Assembly (NCBI GenBank): GCA_041653755.1
Contig: JBAZEU010000001.1
Span: forward strand, 129,398-193,397
Origin: Minisyncoccota bacterium
Lineage (GTDB): Bacteria > Patescibacteriota > Minisyncoccia > UBA6257 > UBA9933
Direction: 5' to 3'
DNA: 64,000 nt
Part shown: in pieces, positions 19,221 through 62,122 of the stretch
How positions within the stretch are numbered: the stretch's first letter is position 1
Layout: each line of letters opens with the position of its first letter
Notes under the pieces: generated by a model
What the model was told of the DNA's origin: nothing
The model's database searches: none
Seen by the model: only the letters and a program-made list of their open reading frames with translations
Position numbers and translations under genes: made by a program

Positions 19221-20639
19221 ATGACTTACAAACCTACAATCGGTTTAGAAATCCATACAGAGCTAAAAACTGCGCAAAAGATGTTTTGCGGTTGTTCGAA
19301 TGACCCGGAAGAAAAAAGACCGAATATTAATGTTTGCCCTATTTGTTTGGCCCACCCGGGAGCGTTGCCGACTATTAATAAAGAAGCGGTGGAAAAGGTC
19401 ATACAAGTTGGTTTGGCTTTGGGTTCTAATTCGCCAGCTGGCGAATCTAAATTCGACCGTAAAAATTATTTTTATCCGGACCTGCCAAAGGGTTATCAAA
19501 TTTCTCAATTTGATGCGCCGCTCTGCGTTGGCGGGAATTTAAATAATATCCGAATTACCAGAATTCACCTTGAAGAAGATACAGCTCGTTTACTTCATTC
19601 AAATAAAGACGATTCTTCTTTAGTTGATTTTAATCGTGCCGGAATGCCATTGATGGAGCTGGTGACTGAACCGGACATTAAAAGCGCTGAAGAGGCGTTA
19701 AGTTTTGTAAAAGAGTTACAGCTGATTTTAAAATATTTGGGTGTGTCCGATGCTGATATGGAAAAAGGTCAGATGCGTTGTGAAGTGAATATATCGTTAT
19801 CAAAAAATGATAAATTAGGCACAAAGGTAGAAATAAAAAATTTGAATTCTTTCAGGGCAGTAGGGGAGTCAATTAAATATGAAATTGAAAGGCAGACAGA
19901 AGCGTTAGAAAAAGGAGAAAAAATTGTTCAGGAGACAATGGGTTGGGATGATATAAAGAAAAAAACAATTAGCCAAAGGACAAAAGAAGAGTCGCATGAT
20001 TATCGTTATTTCCCCGAACCGGATTTGCCGCCATTAGATTTAACAAAACTCGATTTAGAAAACTTAAAACGTGATTTGCCGGAACTGCCGGTCCAAAAGC
20101 GCGAAAGATTTATTAAAGAATACGGCTTAACCTCTCAACAAGTTGAATTATTGGTTATTGACCGTTTTGCCGGAAAATTTTTCGAAGAAGCCGTATCGGA
20201 ACTACAAACTACTAACGATAAACTACTAACTAATTTATACAATTATTTAACCAGTGATTTGTTTGGTCTGATTTCGCAGACAAAAATCGGGTATAAGGAT
20301 TTGAAAATTACGCCAGAGAATTTTGCGGAATTGATGAATATGATCGATAAAAAAGAAGTTTCTACCCGTACCGCAAAAGATGTTTTGAAAATTATGCTTG
20401 ATACTGGCCGTGATCCATTAGAGATTATTGAAAGTGAAGGGCTGAAACAAATTTCTGATGAATCTGGGATTATAGAAGTTGTTAAAAAAGTTATTTCAGA
20501 AAATCCGAAACCAGTTGAAGATTATAAGAAAGGCAAAGAAAACGCCATTCAGGCGTTGATAGGTAAAGCAATGGGACAGTTAAAAGGCAGAGCAAATCCA
20601 GAATCGTTGAAAAAGCTGATAAAAGAAAATTTAAGGTAG
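19221..20639 (+). CDS. gatB: Asp-tRNA(Asn)/Glu-tRNA(Gln) amidotransferase subunit B
   Basis: IGLEIHTELKT...CPICLAHPGALP; YqeY-like C-terminus. Confidence 0.9.
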   Translation: MTYKPTIGLEIHTELKTAQKMFCGCSNDPEEKRPNINVCPICLAHPGALPTINKEAVEKVIQVGLALGSNSPAGESKFDRKNYFYPDLPKGYQISQFDAPLCVGGNLNNIRITRIHLEEDTARLLHSNKDDSSLVDFNRAGMPLMELVTEPDIKSAEEALSFVKELQLILKYLGVSDADMEKGQMRCEVNISLSKNDKLGTKVEIKNLNSFRAVGESIKYEIERQTEALEKGEKIVQETMGWDDIKKKTISQRTKEESHDYRYFPEPDLPPLDLTKLDLENLKRDLPELPVQKRERFIKEYGLTSQQVELLVIDRFAGKFFEEAVSELQTTNDKLLTNLYNYLTSDLFGLISQTKIGYKDLKITPENFAELMNMIDKKEVSTRTAKDVLKIMLDTGRDPLEIIESEGLKQISDESGIIEVVKKVISENPKPVEDYKKGKENAIQALIGKAMGQLKGRANPESLKKLIKENLR

Positions 20640-22627: not shown

Positions 22628-23605
22628 TTAATAAAGAAAATTTTTAACTAATTTTTTGGCCTCTTTATAATTTTTTATCCATTTGATTATTTTGTCTTTT
22701 TTGAACCACGTCATTTGGCGTTTGGAAAATTGCCAGGTTTTTTGATTCAAAATTTCAATCATTTTTTCTTTAGTGATTAATTCGCGAAGGTAATAAGAAA
22801 TATACCTGTATTCTAAGCCCAATTCATCTAATCGTTTCCATGTTAATCCTCGTTGGTATAACTTTTTAATCTCTTCTATCATCCCTTGTTTTAGCCGTTT
22901 TTCTAGCCGGATTTTAATCAATTTTTGTAGTTCTTCTTTTGGTTTTTTTATCCCGATAATTAAAACATCAAACGTTGCTGTACGCTGATTTAAATCTGAT
23001 TTATGCGGATTTGGTTTGCCGGTGATTAAAACAATCTCTAACGCTCTGATTAATCGGCGTTTATTATATTTATCAATGTTTTTTGCTCTTTGCGGGTCAA
23101 GTTTTTTTAGTTGCTTGAAAAGTTCTTCAATGGATTTTTTCTCCAGTTTTTCTCTTAATTTTTTCTGTGGCGGAACTTCCGGAATTTGCCAGTTGTAAAT
23201 TAAAGAATAAATATAAAAAGCCGTACCGCCGCAGATTATTGGGATTTTACCTTTGGCTATGATTTTTTTTATAGCTTTTTTTGCCAGTTTTTGGTATTGC
23301 GCAACCGTGAATCTATTCTTGGGCGAAGCTATGTCTAGGAGATGGTGACGAATGCCTTGATGATAGAATTCTGAACTCTGAATTCTTAATTTTGAATTAA
23401 GGTCTTTCGTGACCTTTCCGGAGCCAAGATCAAGGCCTTTATAAACTTGTCTTGAATCAGCCGAAATAATTTCAATCCCGTTTATCCCGAATGTTTTTCG
23501 GGCCTGCCCGGAACTTAAGTGGAGGGCAATCTTTACAGCCAAGCCCGATTTTCCCGAGGCAGTAGGACCAAGAACAACGATTATTTTGTCTTTTTTATTC
23601 ATCAT
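22628..23605 (-). CDS. miaA: tRNA dimethylallyltransferase
   Basis: P-loop VVLGPTASGKS; IPT family layout. Confidence 0.85.
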   Translation of the reverse strand: MMNKKDKIIVVLGPTASGKSGLAVKIALHLSSGQARKTFGINGIEIISADSRQVYKGLDLGSGKVTKDLNSKLRIQSSEFYHQGIRHHLLDIASPKNRFTVAQYQKLAKKAIKKIIAKGKIPIICGGTAFYIYSLIYNWQIPEVPPQKKLREKLEKKSIEELFKQLKKLDPQRAKNIDKYNKRRLIRALEIVLITGKPNPHKSDLNQRTATFDVLIIGIKKPKEELQKLIKIRLEKRLKQGMIEEIKKLYQRGLTWKRLDELGLEYRYISYYLRELITKEKMIEILNQKTWQFSKRQMTWFKKDKIIKWIKNYKEAKKLVKNFLY

Positions 23606-29817: not shown

Positions 29818-30540
29818 GTGATTAACAAAAAATCGAAAAAACCCAAATACATTATTGGTATAGATGAGGTTGGTAGGGGACCGTTGGCCGGACCAGTTGT
29901 GGTAGCGGCTTTAGCGCTCCCACAAAATTCCTGCCTGTCCGGCAGGCAGGCAAAATTAAGAATTAAAAATGCAGAGTTGAGAACTACGGAAAAATCTAAA
30001 AATTCTGAATTCTTAATTCTGCATTCTAAATTAGCGAAGCTTAGGGACTCTAAAAAACTTTCACCGCAACAAAGAGAAAAATGGTTTGATTGGGTAAAAG
30101 AAAATAAAATTCTATACGCAGTTGCATCAGTTTCGCCAAGAATAATTGATAAAATTAATATATCGAACGCCGCAAACTTAGCAGCCCAAAACGCTCTCGA
30201 GCGTTTAATTAAGAATGCCGTGCCTGCCGGCAGGCAGGCAGAATTCAGAATTAAGAATTGTAAGGTTTTCCTTGACGGCGGACTGTATCTAAAAAGATTC
30301 AAGATTCAAGATCTAAGATGCAAGACAGTTATTCGGGGTGACGAAAAAATTCCAGCGATCTCTTTGGCTTCAATTGTTGCAAAAGTCACGCGTGATAAAA
30401 AAATGAAGGAATTTCATAAAAAATATCCTCGTTATGGTTTTGATAAGCATAAGGGCTATGGGACGAAATATCATATCAGAGCCATCAAAAGAAATGGTGT
30501 TTCAAAAATACATCGAAAAAGTTTTTTGAAAAACTTTTGA
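29818..30540 (+). CDS. rnhB: ribonuclease HII carrying two in-frame repeat-derived insertions
   Basis: GIDEVGRGPLAGPV...DSKKLS...KGDEKIPAISLASIVAKVTRD...YGFDKHKGYGTKYH; about 35 aa and about 12 aa of extra sequence at the repeat sites. Confidence 0.85.
   Translation: MINKKSKKPKYIIGIDEVGRGPLAGPVVVAALALPQNSCLSGRQAKLRIKNAELRTTEKSKNSEFLILHSKLAKLRDSKKLSPQQREKWFDWVKENKILYAVASVSPRIIDKINISNAANLAAQNALERLIKNAVPAGRQAEFRIKNCKVFLDGGLYLKRFKIQDLRCKTVIRGDEKIPAISLASIVAKVTRDKKMKEFHKKYPRYGFDKHKGYGTKYHIRAIKRNGVSKIHRKSFLKNF
29929..30040. repeat. MITE-like element: GC hairpin (CCTGCCTG-TCCGG-CAGGCAGG) plus inverted AGAATTA-heptad arrays, in-frame inside rnhB
   Basis: Left array AAAATTAAGAATTAAAAATGCAGAG and inverted right array CTGAATTCTTAATTCTGCATTCTAAATTAGC resemble the arrays flanking the 4HB gene at 59021/59399. 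Confidence 0.55.
30217..30262. repeat. second, solo copy of the GC palindrome (CCTGCCGGCAGG) plus heptad array (AGAATTCAGAATTAAGAATTG) inside rnhB
   Basis: Same composite architecture as 29929..30040, left half only. Confidence 0.5.
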
Positions 30541-38086: not shown

Positions 38087-38594
38087 GAAGAGCAAACCAC
38101 AAAAACAAAAGGAAATGGATTCGGGAGAAAAGCTTTTGAAAGAAAGCGAGAATTTGATTTTCGTTAATTTTAGCGGAGCGACAATGGAGGATTTAAAGAG
38201 CTTAAGGGCGGACTTAAAAAAACAGAAGGATAGTTTTAAGGTTGTAAAGAAAAGATTATTGAAAATTGTTTTACAAAAACTTGGAGTTGATTTCGATCCG
38301 ACTCAATTTGATGCGCAAGTTGGGACTATTTTTGTAACCGATAAGGATATAGCTGTTGCAGCTAACGCGGTCCATAAATTATTTAAAGCAAAACAAAGAG
38401 CTAAGGCAGAATTTAATATTCTAGGCGGGTATGATATGGGAAATAAAGTTTTTATTGACGAGTCAAGAATGAAATTGATCGGACAATTACCGGCAAAAGA
38501 AGTTGTATTGGCACAGGTGTTGGGAATGATCGCATCGCCGATACAGTCAATGTTATATATATTAAATGAAAGGTCGAAACAGACGAAATCCTAA
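38085..38594 (+). CDS. rplJ: 50S ribosomal protein L10
   Basis: L10-like N-terminus (IFVNFSGATMEDLKSLRADLKK...FKVVKKRLL) and position directly upstream of rplL. Confidence 0.8.
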   Translation: MKSKPQKQKEMDSGEKLLKESENLIFVNFSGATMEDLKSLRADLKKQKDSFKVVKKRLLKIVLQKLGVDFDPTQFDAQVGTIFVTDKDIAVAANAVHKLFKAKQRAKAEFNILGGYDMGNKVFIDESRMKLIGQLPAKEVVLAQVLGMIASPIQSMLYILNERSKQTKS

Positions 38595-38709
38595 TTTCTA
38601 AGCTCTAATTTCTAAACAAATTCAAATTATCAAAATCCAAAGAGTTTAGAATTTAGTTATTTAGACATTGTTTAGGATTTAGGTATTAGGATTTAGAATT
38701 TCAAAATAT
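38595..38709 (+). repeat. 115-bp TAGGATTT-rich intergenic element (rplJ-rplL spacer)
   Basis: Both ends closely match the reverse complement of 52762..52876 (TAATTTCTAAGCTCTAATTTCTAAA; TGTTTAGGATTTAGGTATTAGGATTTAGAATTT). Confidence 0.5.
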
Positions 38710-48846: not shown

Positions 48847-49617
48847 ATGAACAATATTGAAAAAGGACATCAATTTGAAGCACCGATAGAAGAAAGGGGA
48901 AAAGAACTTCCTTGGGATGCTGAAAAAGAAATTACCAAAGATGATTGGCAGGCAATGAAAAGCGAACTAGAGCATTACAGGAAAATAGGTGGTTGGGGAG
49001 GATTTTCTTCGCAAGCAATGGAAATGAAAATAATTAATCCTGAGATAGATCTTAATCTTGATGAAAAAGACTGGGAAGGAATGAAATGGATGTTAGAATT
49101 TTACAGGAAAAGAGATAGGGATAATAGAGTAGAAGGTAATTTGGAGGATTTTACCAAACAAGCAATGGAAATGAAGATTATTAATTCTGAAACAGAGCTT
49201 AATCTTGATACTAAAACTTGGCAAGGTATGAAAAATGAATTAGAGGGTCACAGGAAAGAAATTGATTTGCTGAGGCATTTTTTACCCAGGCAGGCGATGA
49301 GAATGAAAATCCTTAGCCCCGAGATAGATCTTAACCTTGATGAAAAAGATTGGCAAAAGATGAAAGATGGATTAGAAGACCGTAGAAAACAGGGTAATTG
49401 GTGGGATTTTTGTTCACGGGCAATGGAAATGAAAATTCTTGATCCTGAAGTAGAACTTAACCTTGATGAAAAAGCTTGGCAAGGGATGAAAGATGGATTA
49501 GCTTTTCATAGAAAAGGGCATAATTGGTTGCATTTTTCTCATCAAGCAATGGGGATGAAAATTCTTGCTAGTCCAAGAGTTAAAATCCCTCCAGAAGGAG
49601 GATTAGAAGTGGAGTAG
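48847..49617 (+). CDS. tandem-repeat protein (five ~40-aa repeats of QAMEMKI..PE.DLNLDEK.WQGMK..LE..RK)
   Basis: Internal periodicity visible in the translation. Confidence 0.5.
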   Translation: MNNIEKGHQFEAPIEERGKELPWDAEKEITKDDWQAMKSELEHYRKIGGWGGFSSQAMEMKIINPEIDLNLDEKDWEGMKWMLEFYRKRDRDNRVEGNLEDFTKQAMEMKIINSETELNLDTKTWQGMKNELEGHRKEIDLLRHFLPRQAMRMKILSPEIDLNLDEKDWQKMKDGLEDRRKQGNWWDFCSRAMEMKILDPEVELNLDEKAWQGMKDGLAFHRKGHNWLHFSHQAMGMKILASPRVKIPPEGGLEVE

Positions 49618-52761: not shown

Positions 52762-52876
52762 GCCTTTATAAAATCCTAAGTCCTAATATCTAAATCCTAA
52801 ACAAATCTTAATTACCGAATGACCAAAACCCGTTTTTAGAACATTTGAATTTTGGCTATTATTTAGAAATTAGAGT
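52762..52876 (-). repeat. TAGGATTT-rich intergenic element (inverted copy of 38595..38709), directly upstream of the dnaB start
   Basis: Reverse complement matches the ends of the rplJ-rplL spacer element. Confidence 0.5.
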
Positions 52877-54325
52877 TTAGAAATTAGAAATTTTTAATAA
52901 TAGTGGTCCTAGCGGTGTATCTTCTACACTATATCCTAACTTTTCTATTTTATTTCTCAATAGGTCAGCTGGGATAAACTGTTTATCCTTTCTTAATAAA
53001 TCACGCTTTTTTGCCAAATCCTTCACTTTTTTAGGTATTTTAAGCAGTTCCAATCTAATGCCTAATATGTCTAATTTAGCTTTAATTAGCTTGGTTATTG
53101 CTTTAGCTTGGTCTTTATCAAATTGCCAGATTTGATTTTGCCAGGAAGAAATCATGTCAAAAATTACCGACAAGGCCTTTGGAGTATTAAAATCGTTTTC
53201 TAAGGCTTCGGTGAAATTGCTGTCAAGAACTTCAATTAATTTATTTATTTCGAAAGAAGAACTTTTTTTATTGTTGGCGAGAATAATCAAATGCAATTTT
53301 CCTAAAAATTCTTTTATATTCTGAAGAGAATTTTTTGTTTGAAGAATTAGTTCGTCGGTGTAATTAATGGGGGATCGGTAATGGGATGATAAAATCAGCA
53401 TTCTTAAAACAGCCGGAGAATTATTTTTTAGGAAATCAGAGATTGAAATAAAATTTTTCAAACTTTTGGACATTTTTTTGTCATCAACCAAAAGAAAACC
53501 GGTGTGCATCCAAATTTTCACAAAAGGCTTTTTACCGGAAGCAGATTCCATCTGGGCGATTTCTGATTCGTGGTGAGGAAATTTTAAATCCATTCCGCCT
53601 CCATGAATATCGTATTGAGGACCAAAAAACTTCTCGGCAATAGCCGTGTCTTCAATATGCCAGCCGGGGCGGCCCCAGCCCCAAGGCGATTGCCACATTG
53701 GTTCGCCATCTAAAATTTGAAATTTTGATTTTTGATTTTGTTTAGAGTTTAGGGTTTGGGATTTAGGATTTGATTTCTTCCAGAGGGAGAAATCCAGCGG
53801 ATCTTTTTTCTGCGGATCTGGTTCAATACGCCAGCCGGGCCTCAATTGGTCTAGCGATTGCTTGGAAAGCTTGCCATAACTCTTAGCCTTTTTTACTTCA
53901 AAATATATTCCATTATCGGTTTCATAAGCAAAATATTTCTTTAGAAGGGTAGCAATTTGTTTTTGAATTTGTGGGATGTGATCGGTTGCCCGGGCATATT
54001 TATCTACTGAATCAATGCCAATTTTCTTCATTATTTTTTTGTATTCGGCCTCAAAGAACTTGGCTAATTCTAAAGGATTTTTATTGGTTTCTTTCGCGCG
54101 TTCAATAATTTTATCGTCGACATCGGTAATGTTTTGGAGGTAAAAAACCTTTATTTTTTGCGACCTTAAAAAACGAACAAAAGTGTCAAAAACAATATAG
54201 GTTCTGGCGTGACCAATATGAGGAAAATCATAAACAGTTGGTCCGCAGACGAATAATCTTAAAAAGCCCTTTTTGGGGAGTTCAAGGACTTGTTTTTTAT
54301 TAGAAAGAGTGTCGAGAATTTCCAT
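52877..54325 (-). CDS. cysS: cysteine--tRNA ligase with in-frame low-complexity insertion
   Basis: HIGH (HIGHARTY) and KMSKS motifs; 18-aa insert SNPKSQTLNSKQNQKSKFQIL encoded by repeat-like DNA. Confidence 0.9.
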   Translation of the reverse strand: MEILDTLSNKKQVLELPKKGFLRLFVCGPTVYDFPHIGHARTYIVFDTFVRFLRSQKIKVFYLQNITDVDDKIIERAKETNKNPLELAKFFEAEYKKIMKKIGIDSVDKYARATDHIPQIQKQIATLLKKYFAYETDNGIYFEVKKAKSYGKLSKQSLDQLRPGWRIEPDPQKKDPLDFSLWKKSNPKSQTLNSKQNQKSKFQILDGEPMWQSPWGWGRPGWHIEDTAIAEKFFGPQYDIHGGGMDLKFPHHESEIAQMESASGKKPFVKIWMHTGFLLVDDKKMSKSLKNFISISDFLKNNSPAVLRMLILSSHYRSPINYTDELILQTKNSLQNIKEFLGKLHLIILANNKKSSSFEINKLIEVLDSNFTEALENDFNTPKALSVIFDMISSWQNQIWQFDKDQAKAITKLIKAKLDILGIRLELLKIPKKVKDLAKKRDLLRKDKQFIPADLLRNKIEKLGYSVEDTPLGPLLLKISNF

Positions 54326-55629: not shown

Positions 55630-56142
55630 GTGGTATTACTAATGGATATTCAAGATAAAAATTCGATTCCCGAAGAACAATCATCGGTTCCTGAACCAGA
55701 GATAAATGAGAAAATACAAACAAAGGAAGAGGAGTATCTTGATGGTTGGAAAAGAGCAAAAGCAGAACTTCTTAATTATAAAAAAGACGAAGCAAAAAGA
55801 TTTGAATCAATAATCAGATTTTCTAACGAGTCGCTAGTGAAAGAATTATTGTCGGTTCTTGATAGCTTTGATTTAGCAGAGAATTCTTTTGGAGAGGACG
55901 CAAAAGCTCAAAAAGGTTTCTATCTTATCAAAAGCCAGCTTGAAGATGTTTTGAAAAGAAACGGTGTGGAAAAAATTAAAATAGAAATTGGTGAAACGTT
56001 TAATCCGGAATTTCATGAAGCGGTTGCGAATGTTGATTCAGATCAGCCGACTGATTCAATAATTGAAGAAATAGAGTCGGGCTATATCTTAAATGGAAAG
56101 ATTATAAGGCCAGCGAGAGTAAAAGTATCAAAAGGTCATTAA
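55630..56142 (+). CDS. grpE: nucleotide exchange factor GrpE
   Basis: GrpE coiled-coil region and C-terminal beta domain; upstream of dnaK. Confidence 0.85.
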   Translation: MVLLMDIQDKNSIPEEQSSVPEPEINEKIQTKEEEYLDGWKRAKAELLNYKKDEAKRFESIIRFSNESLVKELLSVLDSFDLAENSFGEDAKAQKGFYLIKSQLEDVLKRNGVEKIKIEIGETFNPEFHEAVANVDSDQPTDSIIEEIESGYILNGKIIRPARVKVSKGH

Positions 56143-56159: not shown

Positions 56160-58043
56160 ATGTCAAAAATTATTGGAATCGATTTAGGAACAACTAATTC
56201 GGAAATCGCTATCGTCGAAGGAGGAGAACCAAAAATCTTGGAAAACCAGGAAGGAACACGGCTTACTCCATCAATAGTCGCAGTTACTAAGAATAACGAA
56301 AGAGTTGTCGGAGTTTTGGCCAAGCGTCAGGCGGTGGTTAATCCTAAAAATACTATTTTTTCCGTAAAGCGTCTTATCGGCCGCCGATTTTCTGACGCTG
56401 AAGTTCAGCGTGATAAAGCATGGCTGCCGTTTGATATTCAGCAATCTTCAGCCGGCGGAGTTGAAATTAAAATGGGTGATCGTTGGTATAAGCCGGAAGA
56501 AATTTCCGCGATGGTTTTAGGAAAATTAAAAGCTGATGCTGAAGCGAAATTAGGAGAAAAAGTGGAAGAAGCGGTGATTACCGTGCCAGCTTATTTTGAT
56601 GATACCCAAAGACAAGCCACTAAAAACGCAGGAGAAATCGCCGGCTTGAAAGTACGGCTGATTTTAAACGAACCTACCGCTGCTGCCTTAGCTTATGGAT
56701 TGAACAAAAAGAAAAATGAGCAAATCGTTGTTTATGATTTCGGCGGCGGAACATTTGATATTTCTATCCTTGAGGTTTCTGAAGATACGGTTCAGGTTAT
56801 TGCTACCGGCGGCGATACTCATTTGGGTGGAGATGATTTTGATAAAAGAATTGTTGAATATTTAATCAGTGAATATAAAAAACAGGAGGGGATCGATATT
56901 TCCAAAGATCCTTTAGCGCTTCAACGATTAAAAGAAGGAGCGGAACGCGCCAAACACGAACTTTCAACCGCGATAGAAAGTGAAATTAACTTGCCTTATA
57001 TCACCTCCGACGCTTCCGGCCCGAAACACTTTTTGATGAAATTAACCAGAGCTAAACTTGAAGAATTAATTCGCGAGTTGGTTCAAAAATCGATTGATTT
57101 GGTAAAGAAAACTTTAGATGAAGCAAAATTAAAACCTGAAGACATTGAAGAAGTTGTTTTAGTCGGAGGACAAACTAGAATGCCTTTAATTCAGGAAGAA
57201 GTTAAAAAACTTTTTAACAAAGAACCTCATAAGGGAATTAACCCGGACGAAGTGGTAGCTTCAGGTGCGGCGATTCAGGCCGGAATTTTTCAGGGAGACG
57301 TAAAAGATATTTTGCTTTTGGATGTAACGCCTTTGTCTTTGGGAATTGAAACATTGGGAGGAGTGAATACGGTGCAGATTGAAAAAAATACCACCGTTCC
57401 TACCGCCAAAACGCAAATTTTTTCAACAGCGGCCGATAATCAAACTTCTGTTGAGGTTCATGTGCTTCAAGGCGAAAGGCCAATGGCCTCCGATAACAGA
57501 ACTTTAGCAAGGTTTATTTTAGACGGCATTCCGCCATCTCCCCGGGGTATTCCGCAGGTTGAGGTAGCTTTTGACATTGACGCTAATGGAATTTTAACGG
57601 TTTCAGCCAAAGATAAGGCAACCGGCAAGAGCCAGCAAGTTAAGATCGAGGCTTCAACCGCTTTATCAAAAGAAGAAATAGAAAAATTAAAACAAGAAGC
57701 AAAAATTCACGAAGAGGAAGATAGAAAGAAAAAAGATACGGTTGAAGTCAAAAATCAAGCTGAACAATCAATTTATATAGCTGAAAAATCTTTGAGAGAC
57801 GCCGGCGACAAAGTCACTCAAGAAGTTAAAGACGCTGTTAACCAAAAAATCGAAGAATTGAAAAAAGTAAAAGATGGCAGTGATGTTGATGCGATAAAGT
57901 CAGCTGTCTCTAATTTGTCTTTGGAACTTCAAAAAATCGGCCAGGCAATGTATCATAAAGAAGAGCCGCCGAAGACAGAAGAACCGCCTAAGCAAGAACC
58001 GCCGAAAGAAGAACCCGGCAGCGGAACACCTAATCAACAATAA
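56160..58043 (+). CDS. dnaK: molecular chaperone DnaK
   Basis: [18 protein letters not shown], Hsp70 signatures. Confidence 0.95.
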
Positions 58044-58048
58044 TTTTA

Positions 58049-59020
58049 ATGGCAACCTTAATCAGCGAAAATCATAGGTTTGATAGTCCTACTATTAAGA
58101 TTATCTTTTTAGCGATTCTTGGAATCATCTCAATTTATTCTTTCGGTCATTATTTAAGTTTAACTTTTAATTCGACGATTGAAAGCCGGATGATGATGTT
58201 TGCGTTTATTGCCGCTGCTTTTTATTTGATTTTTTTCTTTTTCCAGGCAATCTTCGTAAGGTCCACTTGGGAAGGGAATCTGATTATTTTATTGGAAGCG
58301 ATTACTTTCGCTCTTGCTTTCCGCAATCATCTTTCGAAACCAATTCTTTTAGCTTTTGTTTTATTCTTTTTAGTTTTAATGGTTGGCAGATTTTCCGTGA
58401 AAAGAGAGATTGAGAATCATCTACGGTTATCGTTCCTTCGGGTCAATCGTTTAGCTTTTAGTTACGCGGTTACCGCAATGTCAATATTCTTAGCTATATT
58501 CGTGGGAGTTCTTTTTATGAGTTCTTCCATCGGTTTAGAAAAAATTTTAAGCCCAATAACAAACTTAACCGCTAAGATGCTGCCGGGGTCCAATTCGTCT
58601 AATCTTTCGACTAATTTAATAAGTTCAATGGTTCGCCAGCAATTGGATCAGGATCCAAAGTTTAAGGATTTATCTGAAACGCAGAAAAATCTGGTGATAA
58701 CTCAGGCGCTAGGCGAATTTGAAAAACAGATGGGCATGAGTTCAGCTAAAGATAATAAAAGCGCCAGTACAGGCGAATCATCGCTTATCGGAGGATTATT
58801 CAAGGGGCTGAATGATTTTTTTGCCAATATGGATGAACGAACAAAAATGTTGGTTGCCATAATTATTGCTATTTTAGTTTTTGGAATTATCAAAGCGGTG
58901 TTGGCCATTTTCAGCTGGCCTGTCACTTTTATCGCATTTTTACTATACGAATTGCTTTTAGCCACAAATTTTGCTAAAATTTCTCTCGAACAAAAAGAAA
59001 AAGAAGTGCTTAACCTGTAG
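58049..59020 (+). CDS. multi-pass membrane protein of unknown function (inside the dnaK operon)
   Basis: Several hydrophobic helices. Confidence 0.5.
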   Translation: MATLISENHRFDSPTIKIIFLAILGIISIYSFGHYLSLTFNSTIESRMMMFAFIAAAFYLIFFFFQAIFVRSTWEGNLIILLEAITFALAFRNHLSKPILLAFVLFFLVLMVGRFSVKREIENHLRLSFLRVNRLAFSYAVTAMSIFLAIFVGVLFMSSSIGLEKILSPITNLTAKMLPGSNSSNLSTNLISSMVRQQLDQDPKFKDLSETQKNLVITQALGEFEKQMGMSSAKDNKSASTGESSLIGGLFKGLNDFFANMDERTKMLVAIIIAILVFGIIKAVLAIFSWPVTFIAFLLYELLLATNFAKISLEQKEKEVLNL

Positions 59021-59056
59021 GGTTAATTAAGAATTAAGAATGCAGAATTAAGAAAG
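59021..59056. repeat. left terminal array of AGAATTA heptads (TAATTA-AGAATTA-AGAATGC-AGAATTA-AGAAAG) preceded by hairpin TTAACC-TGTAG-GGTTAA
   Basis: Inverted partner at 59399..59434. Confidence 0.55.
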
Positions 59057-59059
59057 ATT

Positions 59060-59401
59060 ATGGAAAAGGAAATTTATAAAAGATCCTGCGATTTTGCTAT
59101 TTCAGTGATAAGATTTTTGAAGAAAATTAACATAGATTCGGCAAATAGGGTAATAGCAGAGCAGCTAATTAGATCAATAACTTCAATATCGGCTAATCTT
59201 GCAGAAGGAAGCGCAGCTGTTTCTAAGAAAGAATTTATTAACTATGTCGGTATCGCAAGAAAATCGGCGGTGGAAACAGTGCATTGGCTGAAATTTTCGC
59301 ATCAAATTATTAATAGGGAAGAGATCAAGGAATTTATAAACGAAGGTAGTCAGATAGTAAGCATTTTATCAAAAATAGTTATTAATTCTAAAAACCGCTA
59401 A
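59060..59401 (+). CDS. four-helix-bundle protein (TIGR02436; 23S rRNA intervening-sequence protein family)
   Basis: ISANLAEGS...KEFINYVGIARKSAVETVHWL signature. Confidence 0.7.
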   Translation: MEKEIYKRSCDFAISVIRFLKKINIDSANRVIAEQLIRSITSISANLAEGSAAVSKKEFINYVGIARKSAVETVHWLKFSHQIINREEIKEFINEGSQIVSILSKIVINSKNR

Positions 59402-59434
59402 TTCTGAATTCTTAATTTTGAATTCTTAATTAGC
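59399..59434. repeat. right terminal inverted heptad array (TAATTCTGAATTCTTAATTTTGAATTCTTAATTAGC) followed by hairpin AGCAAAAT-TAT-ATTTTGCT
   Basis: Reverse complement is GCTAATTA-AGAATTC-AAAATTA-AGAATTC-AGAATTA. Confidence 0.55.
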
Positions 59435-59450
59435 AAAATTATATTTTGCT

Positions 59451-60578
59451 ATGAAGGATTATTACAAGGTTCTTGGCGTTGATAAAAATTCTTCGCCAGA
59501 AGATATAAAAAAGGCCTATCGAAAATTGGCTCATCAGTTTCATCCGCATAAAGCCGGTAAAGATGAGAAAAAATTTAAAGAGTTAAACGAAAAACTCAAG
59601 GAAATAAACGAGGCCTATAATATTCTTTCTAACGCCGAGAAAAAAGCGCAATATGACAAATTCGGACAGGTCTTTTCCGCCCAAGGCGGACCAGCCTCGG
59701 GCTGGGAAGGCGTACCATTTTCTGATTTTGGTTTTTCCGCCGATGGCGGATTTGATGTCGGAGGAGTATCTGATTTAGGCGATATTTTCAACGCTATTTT
59801 TGAAGGAATGGGCGTTAGGCAGAAAAGACGAACCTATAAACGCGGTTCAGATCTGGAATTTACGCAGGAAGTTTCCTTAGAGGAATCATTCAGGGGCATT
59901 GAAAAAACTTTAAAATTTAAAACATTTTTGAAATGCAGCAAATGCAAAGGCAAGGGCCACGACGAAAAAGCCGGTTTTGAAAAATGTACGGTTTGCGGCG
60001 GCAGAGGGGAAATTAGGGAAACAAAAAATACTTTTTTTGGAAGTTTTGCCCAGGTAAAGACGTGTGAAAAATGTTTTGGCACAGGACAAGTTCCGAATAA
60101 AGTTTGCGAAATCTGCAAAGGAGCCGGAAGAATCGCCGGAGAAAGAGAAGTAAAAATTCAAATTCTTCCGGGCGTCAGAGACGGACAACTTATCAAAATT
60201 GCTGGAATGGGTGAAGCCGGTGAAAGACAAACCGCAGAAGGAGATTTGTATGTTAGAATTAAAGTCAGACCGCATTCGGTTTTTGAAAGAGCAGGGGATA
60301 ATTTAAAAATTAAAAAAGACGTTAAGTTGGTTGATTTATTATTATCAAAAAAGTTAGAGATTCCAACTATTTCTGGAAACAAGCTGTCTATTGAAATTCC
60401 GGCTGGATTTGATATAAAACAAGATTTGAGGATAGGCGGAGAAGGAATGCCAATTTTTGGAAGTTATGGAAGAGGGGATTTGTTGGTTGAGTTGATGGTA
60501 AAGACGCCGAGAAAATTAAACGAAAAAACAAAGAAGATTCTAGAAGATCTTGGAAAAACAATGGACAATGAACGATAA
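59451..60578 (+). CDS. dnaJ: molecular chaperone DnaJ
   Basis: J domain (HPHK), G/F region, four CxxCxGxG zinc-finger repeats. Confidence 0.9.
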   Translation: MKDYYKVLGVDKNSSPEDIKKAYRKLAHQFHPHKAGKDEKKFKELNEKLKEINEAYNILSNAEKKAQYDKFGQVFSAQGGPASGWEGVPFSDFGFSADGGFDVGGVSDLGDIFNAIFEGMGVRQKRRTYKRGSDLEFTQEVSLEESFRGIEKTLKFKTFLKCSKCKGKGHDEKAGFEKCTVCGGRGEIRETKNTFFGSFAQVKTCEKCFGTGQVPNKVCEICKGAGRIAGEREVKIQILPGVRDGQLIKIAGMGEAGERQTAEGDLYVRIKVRPHSVFERAGDNLKIKKDVKLVDLLLSKKLEIPTISGNKLSIEIPAGFDIKQDLRIGGEGMPIFGSYGRGDLLVELMVKTPRKLNEKTKKILEDLGKTMDNER

Positions 60579-60581
60579 ACT

Positions 60582-60953
60582 ATGAACAAAGCGATTTTCA
60601 GATTTTTAGAGTGGCAAGTATATAAAGATGCAAAGAGTTTTAGACAAAAGGTAAAATCTTTAATTAATAAGAAATTCCCAAAGGAAGAAAGGTATAAACT
60701 TATTGATCAGATAGAAAGAGCTGCAAATTCAGTATGTTTGAATATTGCTGAAGGATCTAATAAACTTTCCGATATTGAATTAAGCCATTATCTTAATATC
60801 GCTTCTACTTCTATAGAGGAAGTTATTTCTGGGCTTGATTTGGCTAAAGATGATGGTTATATTACAGAAAAGGAATTTGAAGATTTTTGTCAGATGGCAG
60901 AAGAAGTTAGTAAACAACTTGTCGCCTTCGGCAAATTTGCACGCAATAGATAG
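60582..60953 (+). CDS. four-helix-bundle protein (TIGR02436 family), second paralog
   Basis: LNIAEGSNK...SHYLNIASTSIEEV; 3-nt gap after dnaJ. Confidence 0.65.
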   Translation: MNKAIFRFLEWQVYKDAKSFRQKVKSLINKKFPKEERYKLIDQIERAANSVCLNIAEGSNKLSDIELSHYLNIASTSIEEVISGLDLAKDDGYITEKEFEDFCQMAEEVSKQLVAFGKFARNR

Positions 60954-61011
60954 AAGTAGTTTGTTTCGTGTTCATCGTTCATCGTTTATATAGTTTTTGG
61001 TCGTAAAAAAC

Positions 61012-61084
61012 GCCCCGTTAGCTCAGTTGGTAGAGCAGCTCCCTTTTAAGGAGAAGGTCGAAGGTTCGAATCCTTCACGGGGTA
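61012..61084 (+). tRNA. tRNA-Lys (anticodon UUU)
   Basis: GCCCCGTTAGCTCAGTTGGTAGAGC...anticodon loop CTTTTAA...GGTTCGAATCC; acceptor 3' strand ACGGGGT. Confidence 0.8.
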
Positions 61085-61130
61085 CAAGGTCTGTAAAATA
61101 GTACACAAGAGCAGGTTTACCAGTCTTGGA
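61080..61130 (+). repeat. 47-bp direct repeat, copy 1, beginning in the tRNA-Lys 3' end (attL-like)
   Basis: GGTACAAGGTCTGTAAAATAGTACACAAGAGCAGGTTTACCAGTCTTG; one mismatch versus 62253..62302. Confidence 0.6.
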
Positions 61131-61568: not shown

Positions 61569-61769
61569 ATGACAAACACAATAGCAGCCCTAAAATTTGA
61601 ATTAGTGGAGTGTAGGTCTTCTAGTTCAACAAAGTTAGGCGAAACGAGTGATACTTATGGCAATTTTAGTGATGACTTTACGCCATTTTTGTTGCTCGGA
61701 GCGCAAGATATCTTGGATGAAATAGGGCCTATTTCAAAAGAAGATTATGATTATTACGAGAATTTATAA
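61569..61769 (+). CDS. putative antitoxin (small acidic protein upstream of the MazF-like toxin)
   Basis: 66 aa; stop overlaps the toxin start (ATAATG). Confidence 0.4.
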   Translation: MTNTIAALKFELVECRSSSSTKLGETSDTYGNFSDDFTPFLLLGAQDILDEIGPISKEDYDYYENL

Positions 61770-62122
61770 TGCAGAAAGGGGATCTAAAATTCGGAGATAT
61801 AGCTTGGACAGATTTTGATCCGAGTATCGGTCATGAATTCCAGGGGAGGAGGCCAGCGTTAATTATTGAATCAGATATTCAACTTAACAAATCAAATCTC
61901 GTTACAGTCGTGCCGATTACTGGGAATACACAGAACAATTTGTTAACTGATGATATTTTAATTTTCACTGACGCATGTAACAATCTTAGAAACAATTCTG
62001 TGATTAAAATGTATTGTATAACATCATTTGACTACCTTCGTTTCCGTAAAAAAATTGGGAAGATTAATGCTGCAACTTCAACGAAAGTAAAATTTTATCT
62101 CCGAAAACATTTTGATCTATAA
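61769..62122 (+). CDS. PemK/MazF-family toxin (mRNA interferase-like)
   Basis: GDIAWTDFDPSIGHEFQGRRPALIIESD...LVTVVPITGN matches the MazF/PemK core. Confidence 0.65.
   Translation: MQKGDLKFGDIAWTDFDPSIGHEFQGRRPALIIESDIQLNKSNLVTVVPITGNTQNNLLTDDILIFTDACNNLRNNSVIKMYCITSFDYLRFRKKIGKINAATSTKVKFYLRKHFDL

Follow-up and report, generated by a model that had tools for sequence, protein, structure and literature searches.

The dnaK operon and its two cassettes

We describe a gene cassette in a 64,000-nucleotide stretch of DNA (the window) from the metagenome-assembled genome of a Minisyncoccota bacterium (Candidatus Paceibacterota, Parcubacteria; GenBank assembly GCA_041653755.1, contig JBAZEU010000001.1, positions 129,398 to 193,397). 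The cassette consists of a gene for a four-helix-bundle (4HB) protein of the TIGR02436/PF05635 family between two inverted arrays of 7-nt units (heptads). It lies within the dnaK operon, whose order is grpE (55630-56142), dnaK (56160-58043), an uncharacterised membrane-protein gene (58049-59020; stop codon 59018-59020), cassette 1, dnaJ (59451-60578), cassette 2, and tRNA-Lys (61012-61085). A sequence-only reading of the window, which preceded this analysis, had reported the first gene, its inverted arrays and its place in the operon, all of which we confirm; it had overlooked the second cassette, directly after dnaJ.

4HB gene 1 (59060-59401, plus strand; 113 aa) was identified by its profile score, 84.9 bits on TIGR02436 against a cutoff of 24. 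The left array (59023-59059, plus strand) has five AGAATTA/AGAATGC-type units, TTAATTA-AGAATTA-AGAATGC-AGAATTA-AGAAAGA, and ends 0-5 nt before the ATG. The right array (59399-59433, plus strand), TAATTCT-GAATTCT-TAATTTT-GAATTCT-TAATTAG, is the inverse of the left, and its first unit, TAATTCT, holds the stop codon of the open reading frame (ORF). A repeat search delimited the arms at 59024-59054 and 59402-59432 (31 nt, 84% complementary), and Tandem Repeats Finder gave period 7 on both flanks of the gene. In the predicted RNA fold the arms pair across the whole ORF in both the minimum free energy (MFE) and the centroid structure, forming a stem of at least 20 bp around the ORF, as in an intervening sequence (IVS) of 23S rRNA. 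The window holds 13 matches to the pattern AGAATNNAGAATNNAGAATNNAGAA (≤3 mismatches) versus 0.19 expected, and the self-similar regions of the window number 15 for period 7 and 12 for the double period of 14, with 1-7 for other periods. Chance, or low-complexity AT-rich DNA, is ruled out by this excess together with the specificity for period 7.

The sequence-only reading had also capped each array with a hairpin, and both hairpins exist. The right one, AGCAAAAT-TAT-ATTTTGCT (59432-59450, plus strand), directly abuts the dnaJ start codon (59451) and is significant (z -3.1, 1/200 shuffles). The left one, TTAACC-TGTAG-GGTTAA (59010-59026, plus strand), lies over the stop codon of the membrane-protein gene, is not significant alone (z -1.3, 30/200 shuffles), and is half host sequence: its 5' arm and loop are the last codons (L-N-L-stop) of the membrane-protein gene, and its 3' arm consists of the bases with which the insert begins. 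Because the host C-terminus, ...KEVL(N/S)L*, is kept in orthologues without the insert, the insert begins right after the TAG at 59020. Promoters and terminators were not enriched inside the operon (16 found versus 14 expected), Rfam at gathering thresholds gave only tRNAs and so no known RNA family for the element, and no rRNA was found in the window. No Shine-Dalgarno motif preceded the start codons of the 27 window genes inspected.

Cassette 2 has the same packaging as cassette 1, with a different heptad (GATGAAC / GTTCATC) and an unrelated 4HB gene. Its left array (60554-60589, plus strand), AAACAATGGACAATGAACGATAAACTATGAACAA, is built of xATGAAC / xATGGAC units and overlaps dnaJ at its final codons and stop and 4HB gene 2 (60582-60953, plus strand; 123 aa; TIGR02436) at its ATG. 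The right array (60961-60990, plus strand), TTGTTTCGTGTTCATCGTTCATCGTTTATA, is of the GTTCATC type, inverted, and is followed by the tRNA-Lys gene. The pattern of cassette 2 has five matches in the window versus 0.08 expected. The dnaJ tail TMDNER* is encoded by the left array, and orthologues without cassette 2 end otherwise. Long-range pairing of the arms across the ORF was again predicted in both the MFE and the centroid structure (z -2.3).

The two 4HB proteins

PF05635/TIGR02436 is a very large family of unassigned function, known only as the ORF of 23S rRNA IVSs and as a homologue of Avd, an accessory protein of diversity-generating retroelements (DGRs). 4HB gene 2 scores 88.8 bits on TIGR02436, and the matches of both genes span profile positions 1-106 of 109, which places them firmly in the family, while the two proteins are only 24% identical to each other. 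PF05635 is annotated on all homologues of both proteins in precomputed annotation, and a genome scan confirmed at least 594 relatives among the matches listed. Both proteins have the 110-125 aa length and the Q..R....S...N(I/L)AEG core of the family; in the alignment Q43, R46, S50, E57, and G58 are invariant across members from the candidate phyla radiation (CPR) and Cyanobacteria. By sequence, 4HB protein 1 matches PDB 2RLD (E 2e-13), an entry with five chains, and Xcc0516 is described as a four-helix bundle assembled as a pentamer in work cited in PMC10053308. The coding sequences of subfamily 1, to which 4HB protein 1 belongs, have a ratio of nonsynonymous to synonymous substitution (dN/dS) of 0.10-0.12, and the 4HB protein is under purifying selection.

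Copies of the cassettes in other operons

Homologues 65-74% identical to 4HB protein 1 lie between htrA and clpB (loci L001-L012 and L154) and between pilB and pilC (L152), and the arms of these copies are of the AGAATTA/AGAATGC type, some of them with further heptad hairpins nested inside. The most distant copy of subfamily 1 (L153, 50% identical), found after the gene of a type IV secretion system (T4SS) coupling protein, has a related AT-rich unit of GCAAAAT type. Homologues of 4HB protein 2 (subfamily 2, 59-77% identical) were found upstream of pilM and of a prepilin peptidase gene and downstream of three ahpC genes, all with GATGAAC / GTTCATC arms. A 25-nt arm core, AGAATTAAGAATGCAGAATTAAGAA, is common to cassette 1, an ORF-less copy in rnhB described below, and L004, and it is kept in L004 though the coding sequence there has diverged to a synonymous distance (dS) of ~1.7. 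Judging from these sequence comparisons, the cassette is shown to move as a unit, and the heptad type to stay with the protein subfamily in unrelated operons.

The outer hairpins recur as well. An upstream hairpin over the last codons and stop of the host gene is present in the window, L004, L009, L154, and L152; it is longer in the latter four, and its sequence follows the host gene with the pairing kept by compensatory differences. The downstream hairpin abuts the next ATG and reads TTAGC-AAAAT/ATTTT-GCT in the window, AGCGAAA...TTTCGCT in L004, L009, and L154, and AGCGCC-TTT-GGCGCT in L152, so that changes between copies are found on both sides of the stem.

Within the arms of subfamily 1, heptad stem-loops that are nested or additional were noted (L004, 2885-2966 and 3368-3438; L152, 2860-2990), and in L004 a GC-rich motif, AGCGAGCAAAGCGAGCT, comparable to the palindromes in rnhB described below, lies between the nested arrays. 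The positions of these stem-loops suggest that the arrays themselves may be preferred targets for further copies.

Insertion at orthologous loci

A metagenome scan with DnaJ gave 50 loci, and among them the two junctions flanking dnaJ were compared. The junction between the membrane-protein gene and dnaJ is empty in L070, where only 4 nt separate stop and start (TAG-ATTT-ATG). The same junction holds an ORF-less hairpin of TACGAAA type (z -9.7) in L023, whose DnaJ is 76% identical, and a short CTAAAAG array in L025 and L026. The junction between dnaJ and tRNA-Lys is empty in L023 and L058, where the tRNA-Lys gene begins 1-8 nt after the dnaJ stop. In L025 and L026 it holds a GATGAAC cassette 2 from which ~290 nt of the ORF have been deleted with both arms kept, and the L025 locus therefore demonstrates that an ORF-less array pair can arise from a 4HB cassette by deletion. 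In L039 (DnaJ 44% identical) a third type of 4HB gene, with 26% and 33% identity and the unit TAGATTT, occupies the junction.

This comparison of orthologous loci shows both cassettes to be insertions. The claim of the sequence-only reading that gene and arrays form one insert thus holds, since both are absent at the L070 junction and the same type lies in unrelated operons of other Paceibacteria. Because relatives differ in their inserts and in their empty sites, both dnaJ-flanking junctions are hot spots of independent insertion; vertical inheritance of the post-dnaJ cassette is unlikely, with the 4HB protein of L039 at 26% identity versus 44% for DnaJ. In place of a target-site duplication, an inverted copy of the end of the upstream gene is found at the junction.

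Inverted heptads around 4HB genes in many phyla

In a survey limited to a single genome for each species we collected 80 4HB loci. They represent at least 12 phyla, among them Cyanobacteria, Bacteroidota, Ignavibacteria, Verrucomicrobia, Planctomycetota, Chloroflexota, Acidobacteriota, Proteobacteria, Thermodesulfobacteriota, Synergistota, Latescibacterota, and Patescibacteria. An array was called at period 7 with at least 15 of 21 self-matches and at most 110 nt from the ORF edge. Such an array was present upstream in 53/80 loci (66%) and downstream in 44/80 (55%), versus 2.3% of 1577 control windows; other periods were found at the edges of 0-1 loci each, except period 8 with seven. Where both arrays were present (38 loci), 33 pairs were inverted and four direct. 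The arrays are typically 4-5 units long. The architecture of a gene with inverted heptads is shown to be general across many phyla.

Heptad unit similarity tracks protein identity: across three bands of protein identity, 39%, 6%, and 2% of unit pairs share at least 6/7 positions. The loci also have a polarity. Neighbouring genes are mostly co-oriented with the 4HB gene (upstream 62 versus 12, downstream 54 versus 21) at a median gap of ~55 nt, and the purine-rich arm is the upstream one in 33 loci versus 7. AGGAG-like cores occur in 18/54 upstream arrays in phyla that use Shine-Dalgarno motifs, and the downstream arms hold the complement.

4HB genes on cyanobacterial plasmids were found by tblastn, and four of these loci (L018-L021) likewise have tandem heptad arrays around the gene. 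The gene of Nostoc punctiforme has GTCAGGA x5 on one side and the inverse array on the other, and that of Leptolyngbya has GGAGATG-type arrays and their inverse. A Pseudanabaena 4HB gene lies between cas6 and cas4 with AAAAGCT x15 and AAAAGCC x10 in direct orientation; this locus (L021, 1380-1960) is from Pseudanabaena galeata plasmid pPg_01. A statistical 'CRISPR association' of 23S_rRNA_IVP proteins is reported in a legend of PMC10910872, and a selfish insertion such as that between cas6 and cas4 could explain it. At L072-L085, 4HB proteins from Nostoc, Ignavibacteriales, Verrucomicrobia, Proteobacteria, Bacteroidetes, and Thermodesulfobacteriota are 70-82% identical and share the same CAGGAGT/CAGAATT heptads, a likeness that points to recent horizontal transfer of whole cassettes across phyla.

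Heptad arrays without a gene

The window has about 13 arrays, only four of which flank 4HB genes. As the sequence-only reading had stated, arrays of the type of cassette 1 occur without a gene in rnhB, where they lie in frame at 29952-30034 and 30233-30264. The first belongs to an element at 29930-30036 (plus strand; z -6.1) in which a heptad stem-loop with arms at 29952-29983 and 29996-30034 comes after a GC hairpin, CCTGCCTGTCCGGCAGGCAGG; the stem-loop has the same AGAATTA/AGAATGC sequence, and its arms are nearly identical to those of cassette 1. Further in-frame segments at 30206-30327 (plus strand) comprise TTAATTAAGAATGC, the palindrome CCTGCCGGCAGG, CAGAATTCAGAATTAAGAATT, and then AAGATTC x5. 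RNase HII is 240 aa here versus a model of 188 positions. GC-rich palindromes, CCTGCC(TGTCC)GGCAGGCAGG at 29930-29950 and CCTGCCGGCAGG at 30223-30234, stand immediately 5' of the rnhB heptad segments and are translated as ...CLSGRQA... and ...VPAGRQA....

A single AGAATTC-type array is in frame in miaA (array 23363-23401, gene 22628-23605, both minus strand), and cysS has in-frame arrays at 53707-53774 (minus strand; peptide ...NPKSQTLNSKQNQKSKFQIL...). The in-frame arrays of miaA, cysS, and rnhB add 10-45 residues to their proteins (e.g., KLRIKNAELR, EFRIKN, NPKSQTLNSKQNQKSKFQ).

Two spacers hold ORF-less heptad hairpins with a third unit type, CTAATTT / TTAGGAT. One fills the rplJ-rplL spacer (38585-38707, plus strand; z -3.6) and the other lies in the cysS-dnaB spacer (52766-52899, minus strand; z -3.4). 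They have similar cores (...CTAAACAAAT...) and both are in the sense orientation of the host operon; no 4HB gene flanked by this unit was found within the window. The C-terminus and stop of cysS sit in the first arm of the cysS-dnaB hairpin, which folds at -29.3 kcal/mol in the sense and -17.6 kcal/mol in the antisense direction.

Other features of the window

A period-7 segment in gatB (19221-20639), AACTACA x4.7 at 20200-20232, encodes ...ELQTTNDKLLTNLYN... and is perhaps a further member of the heptad-array class. A MazF-like toxin gene (61769-62122; weak NCBIfam matches) and the 66-aa ORF before it are likely a toxin-antitoxin pair; they lie a short way downstream of the cassettes, at 61569-62122. 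The ORF at 48847-49617 contains a tandem duplication of 126 nt (1.9 copies, 80% identity) at 49325-49567, and an adjacent pair of tRNA-Thr genes at 504-663 registers as an 85-nt tandem repeat.

A probable selfish intervening sequence between cistrons

The explanation that we favour, and hold to be rather probable, is that of an IVS-type selfish cassette lodged between the cistrons of a protein-coding operon, whose arms would pair in the transcript and be cut by RNase III and whose outer hairpins would cap the ends of the host mRNA. The element class is shown to span phyla, to take in the 23S IVS, and to decay to ORF-less hairpins. The 4HB gene looks like the element's own gene rather than cargo, because it is the sole constant component over at least 12 phyla, it is under purifying selection, and the heptad unit tracks its subfamily.

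We infer the following course of events. Having no promoter of its own, the cassette would be transcribed as part of the host operon, in the sense orientation, and the arms of the transcript would form a stem of 26-33 bp whose loop is the 4HB ORF. RNase III would cut this stem, as it does in the homologous IVS of Coxiella, and the cut would free the 4HB message and separate the host cistrons undamaged. The host mRNAs would thereby gain a new 3' and a new 5' end, capped respectively by the outer hairpin over the upstream stop and the one before the downstream ATG. More speculatively, the 4HB protein may recognise its own heptads and act in the control or propagation of the element, and the ORF-less hairpins (rnhB, miaA, cysS, rplJ-rplL) may represent decayed or miniature copies of it. 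It is likewise a speculation that the period of 7 nt, being 1 mod 3, serves to put stop or start triplets in all three frames.

Several observations weigh against this explanation. Sense and antisense folding energies differ clearly in only 2/7 ORF-less elements. The mismatches in 54 long-range stems have no G-U excess on the sense strand (GT 67 versus AC 55, p = 0.32), and these stems therefore do not demonstrate selection acting on the RNA rather than on an inverted repeat in the DNA. In-frame stem-loops in the essential rnhB and cysS would harm the host if RNase III always cut. A search of the 64-kb window gave no rnc signature. There is no array at all in 20/80 surveyed loci, and the four direct pairs, such as that of Pseudanabaena, are not inverted. 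As to mobility, comparison of filled and empty sites revealed no target-site duplication at either junction, and neither a transposase nor a reverse transcriptase (RT) was found in the neighbourhood of the cassettes.

A wider form of the selfish-cassette explanation can be entertained only tentatively. Heptad arrays genome-wide, including stand-alone cyanobacterial, TAACTGA-type, and CPR in-gene repeats, might be the ends or relics of one selfish rRNA/mRNA IVS super-family whose only gene is that of the Avd-like pentameric 4HB protein, each protein subfamily recognising its own heptad with about one unit per subunit and driving or controlling a propagation that is possibly RNA-mediated. If this is true, such elements would transpose without any transposase-like enzyme, and this kind of mobility would be new. 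The survey already joins two unexplained features, the 4HB family and heptad repeats, from CPR to Cyanobacteria, Bacteroidota, and Planctomycetota. It raises the hypotheses that an insert may leave a polycistronic mRNA by RNase III 'splicing without ligation' and that a pentameric helical bundle may read a 7-nt code sequence-specifically. It would also account for odd in-frame insertions in CPR proteins, the spurious 'CRISPR association', and assembly breaks at such repeats.

Other explanations

The sequence-only reading had proposed a small mobile, non-autonomous element with the 4HB gene as its cargo, in other words a DNA transposon resembling a miniature inverted-repeat transposable element (MITE), in which the arrays are terminal inverted repeats (TIRs) for a transposase encoded elsewhere and 4HB is a passenger. 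The mobile insert has stood the comparison with orthologous sites, and their presence/absence pattern suits a MITE, as do the inverted terminal arrays, the ORF-less window copies with near-identical arms, the nested copies in L004, and stem mismatches without strand bias. The words 'non-autonomous' and 'cargo' have not stood: the gene cast as cargo is the sole constant one in at least 80 loci of at least 12 phyla, it is under the purifying selection described above, and the heptad unit co-varies with it. A symmetric TIR element has no need of the fixed polarity and sense orientation to host genes, and target-site duplications are missing at both junctions, as is an adjacent transposase. We therefore consider a MITE-like transposon unlikely.

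Slightly less credible still is the idea that the arrays came first, as generic simple repeats made in situ by slippage or gene conversion, and that 4HB genes land or survive in their hairpin loops. Arrays do outnumber 4HB genes in the window, and different unit types occupy one junction in different lineages. Heptanucleotides are the most abundant class of 5-11-nt repeats in many genomes, with slippage as the proposed origin (Mrazek, 2007, as cited in PMC4679880), and the heptamer copy number differs among Coxiella strains (PMC4990558). What speaks against simple repeats is that the arm is a defined sequence, with AGAATTAAGAATGCAGAATTAAGAA common to the window, the rnhB copy, and the much diverged L004, and that a given protein subfamily keeps its unit at unrelated loci. 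The truncated cassette in L025, moreover, shows derivation in the opposite direction, from a 4HB cassette to an ORF-less pair.

A heat-shock operon module, with AU-rich stems as RNA thermometers or attenuators and 4HB as a regulator of chaperone operons, is very improbable. It is suggested by the place of cassette 1 between dnaK and dnaJ, by its closest homologues between htrA and clpB, by the 4HB gene after dnaJ in L039, and by a stem that ends 5 nt from the ATG. The diversity of contexts largely refutes it: subfamily 1 is also found in pilB-pilC and after the T4SS coupling protein, subfamily 2 adjoins ahpC, pilM, and the prepilin peptidase gene, and across phyla the contexts are unrelated and include a cas6-cas4 operon, while the junctions are empty in close relatives and arrays lie inside coding sequences as well. 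A remnant or satellite of a DGR with 4HB as its Avd accessory factor, which the homology of PF05635 and Avd, the known occurrence of DGRs in CPR genomes, and a weak match of 4HB gene 2 to the Avd model might bring to mind, is the least credible of all and is rejected, since that match (21.4 bits) is far under the cutoff of 80 and neither gene, among neighbours such as dnaK, dnaJ, and tRNA-Lys, has an RT, a pair of template and variable repeats (TR/VR), or long direct repeats beside it.

Comparison with known systems

Avd binds nucleic acid and partners. It resembles the 4HB proteins of the selfish cassettes as a homologous, pentamer-forming four-helix bundle (PMC10053308), whereas the window is without RT or TR/VR and the Avd score of 4HB gene 2 falls short as given above.

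Rickettsia palindromic elements (RPE) are short palindromic repeats found in frame in essential protein genes and in spacers. The window elements share with RPE and MITE-like repeats the in-frame insertion in essential genes, the presence in spacers, and the many ORF-less hairpin copies. RPE differ in being without heptad periodicity or a conserved protein gene, whereas the full-length window element carries the 4HB gene.

The cyanobacterial short tandemly repeated repetitive (STRR) sequences are stand-alone heptamer tandem repeats, and since STRR were described in 1990 such heptanucleotide repeats in bacterial genomes have gone without an explanation. Like the window arrays, STRR and the TAACTGA repeats are tandem 7-nt units, mostly in 3-6 copies, in operon spacers near start codons and sometimes within genes or structural RNAs, and the cyanobacterial 4HB genes examined here are flanked by such arrays. 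They differ in having been described as stand-alone, and the window units are AT-rich CPR versions. The TAACTGA repeats of Beggiatoaceae, Cyanobacteria, and Bacteroidetes have a patchy distribution across phyla that suggests horizontal spread, with 'no mechanism evident' (PMC4679880). In openly searchable full text we found no paper that ties heptad repeats in general to 4HB genes or to ORF-enclosing inverted pairs; the papers that surfaced were the description of the Coxiella IVS and others on stand-alone heptamer repeats.

The closest likeness is to the 23S rRNA IVS of Leptospira and Coxiella burnetii, an element regarded as selfish (PMC4990558). In C. burnetii the S23p ORF stands behind 3-4 tandem GACAGAT heptamers, and the IVS termini pair over 28 bp; RNase III cuts midway along this stem, the 5' cut falling at the first heptamer (PMC4990558). 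The window cassettes share with this system the PF05635/TIGR02436 family, an ORF within terminal inverted repeats that form a stem (~28 bp in Coxiella), and tandem heptamers directly upstream of the ATG. They differ in adding outer hairpins at the borders of the host genes, in having ORF-less copies in frame inside proteins, and in the state of the protein, since the Coxiella S23p seems to be decaying whereas the window 4HB protein is under purifying selection. RNase III cutting is demonstrated in Coxiella and predicted for the window cassettes. Finally, the 23S IVS sits in helix 25 or 45 of 23S rRNA, whereas the window cassettes have taken up intercistronic junctions and even the 3' ends of genes.

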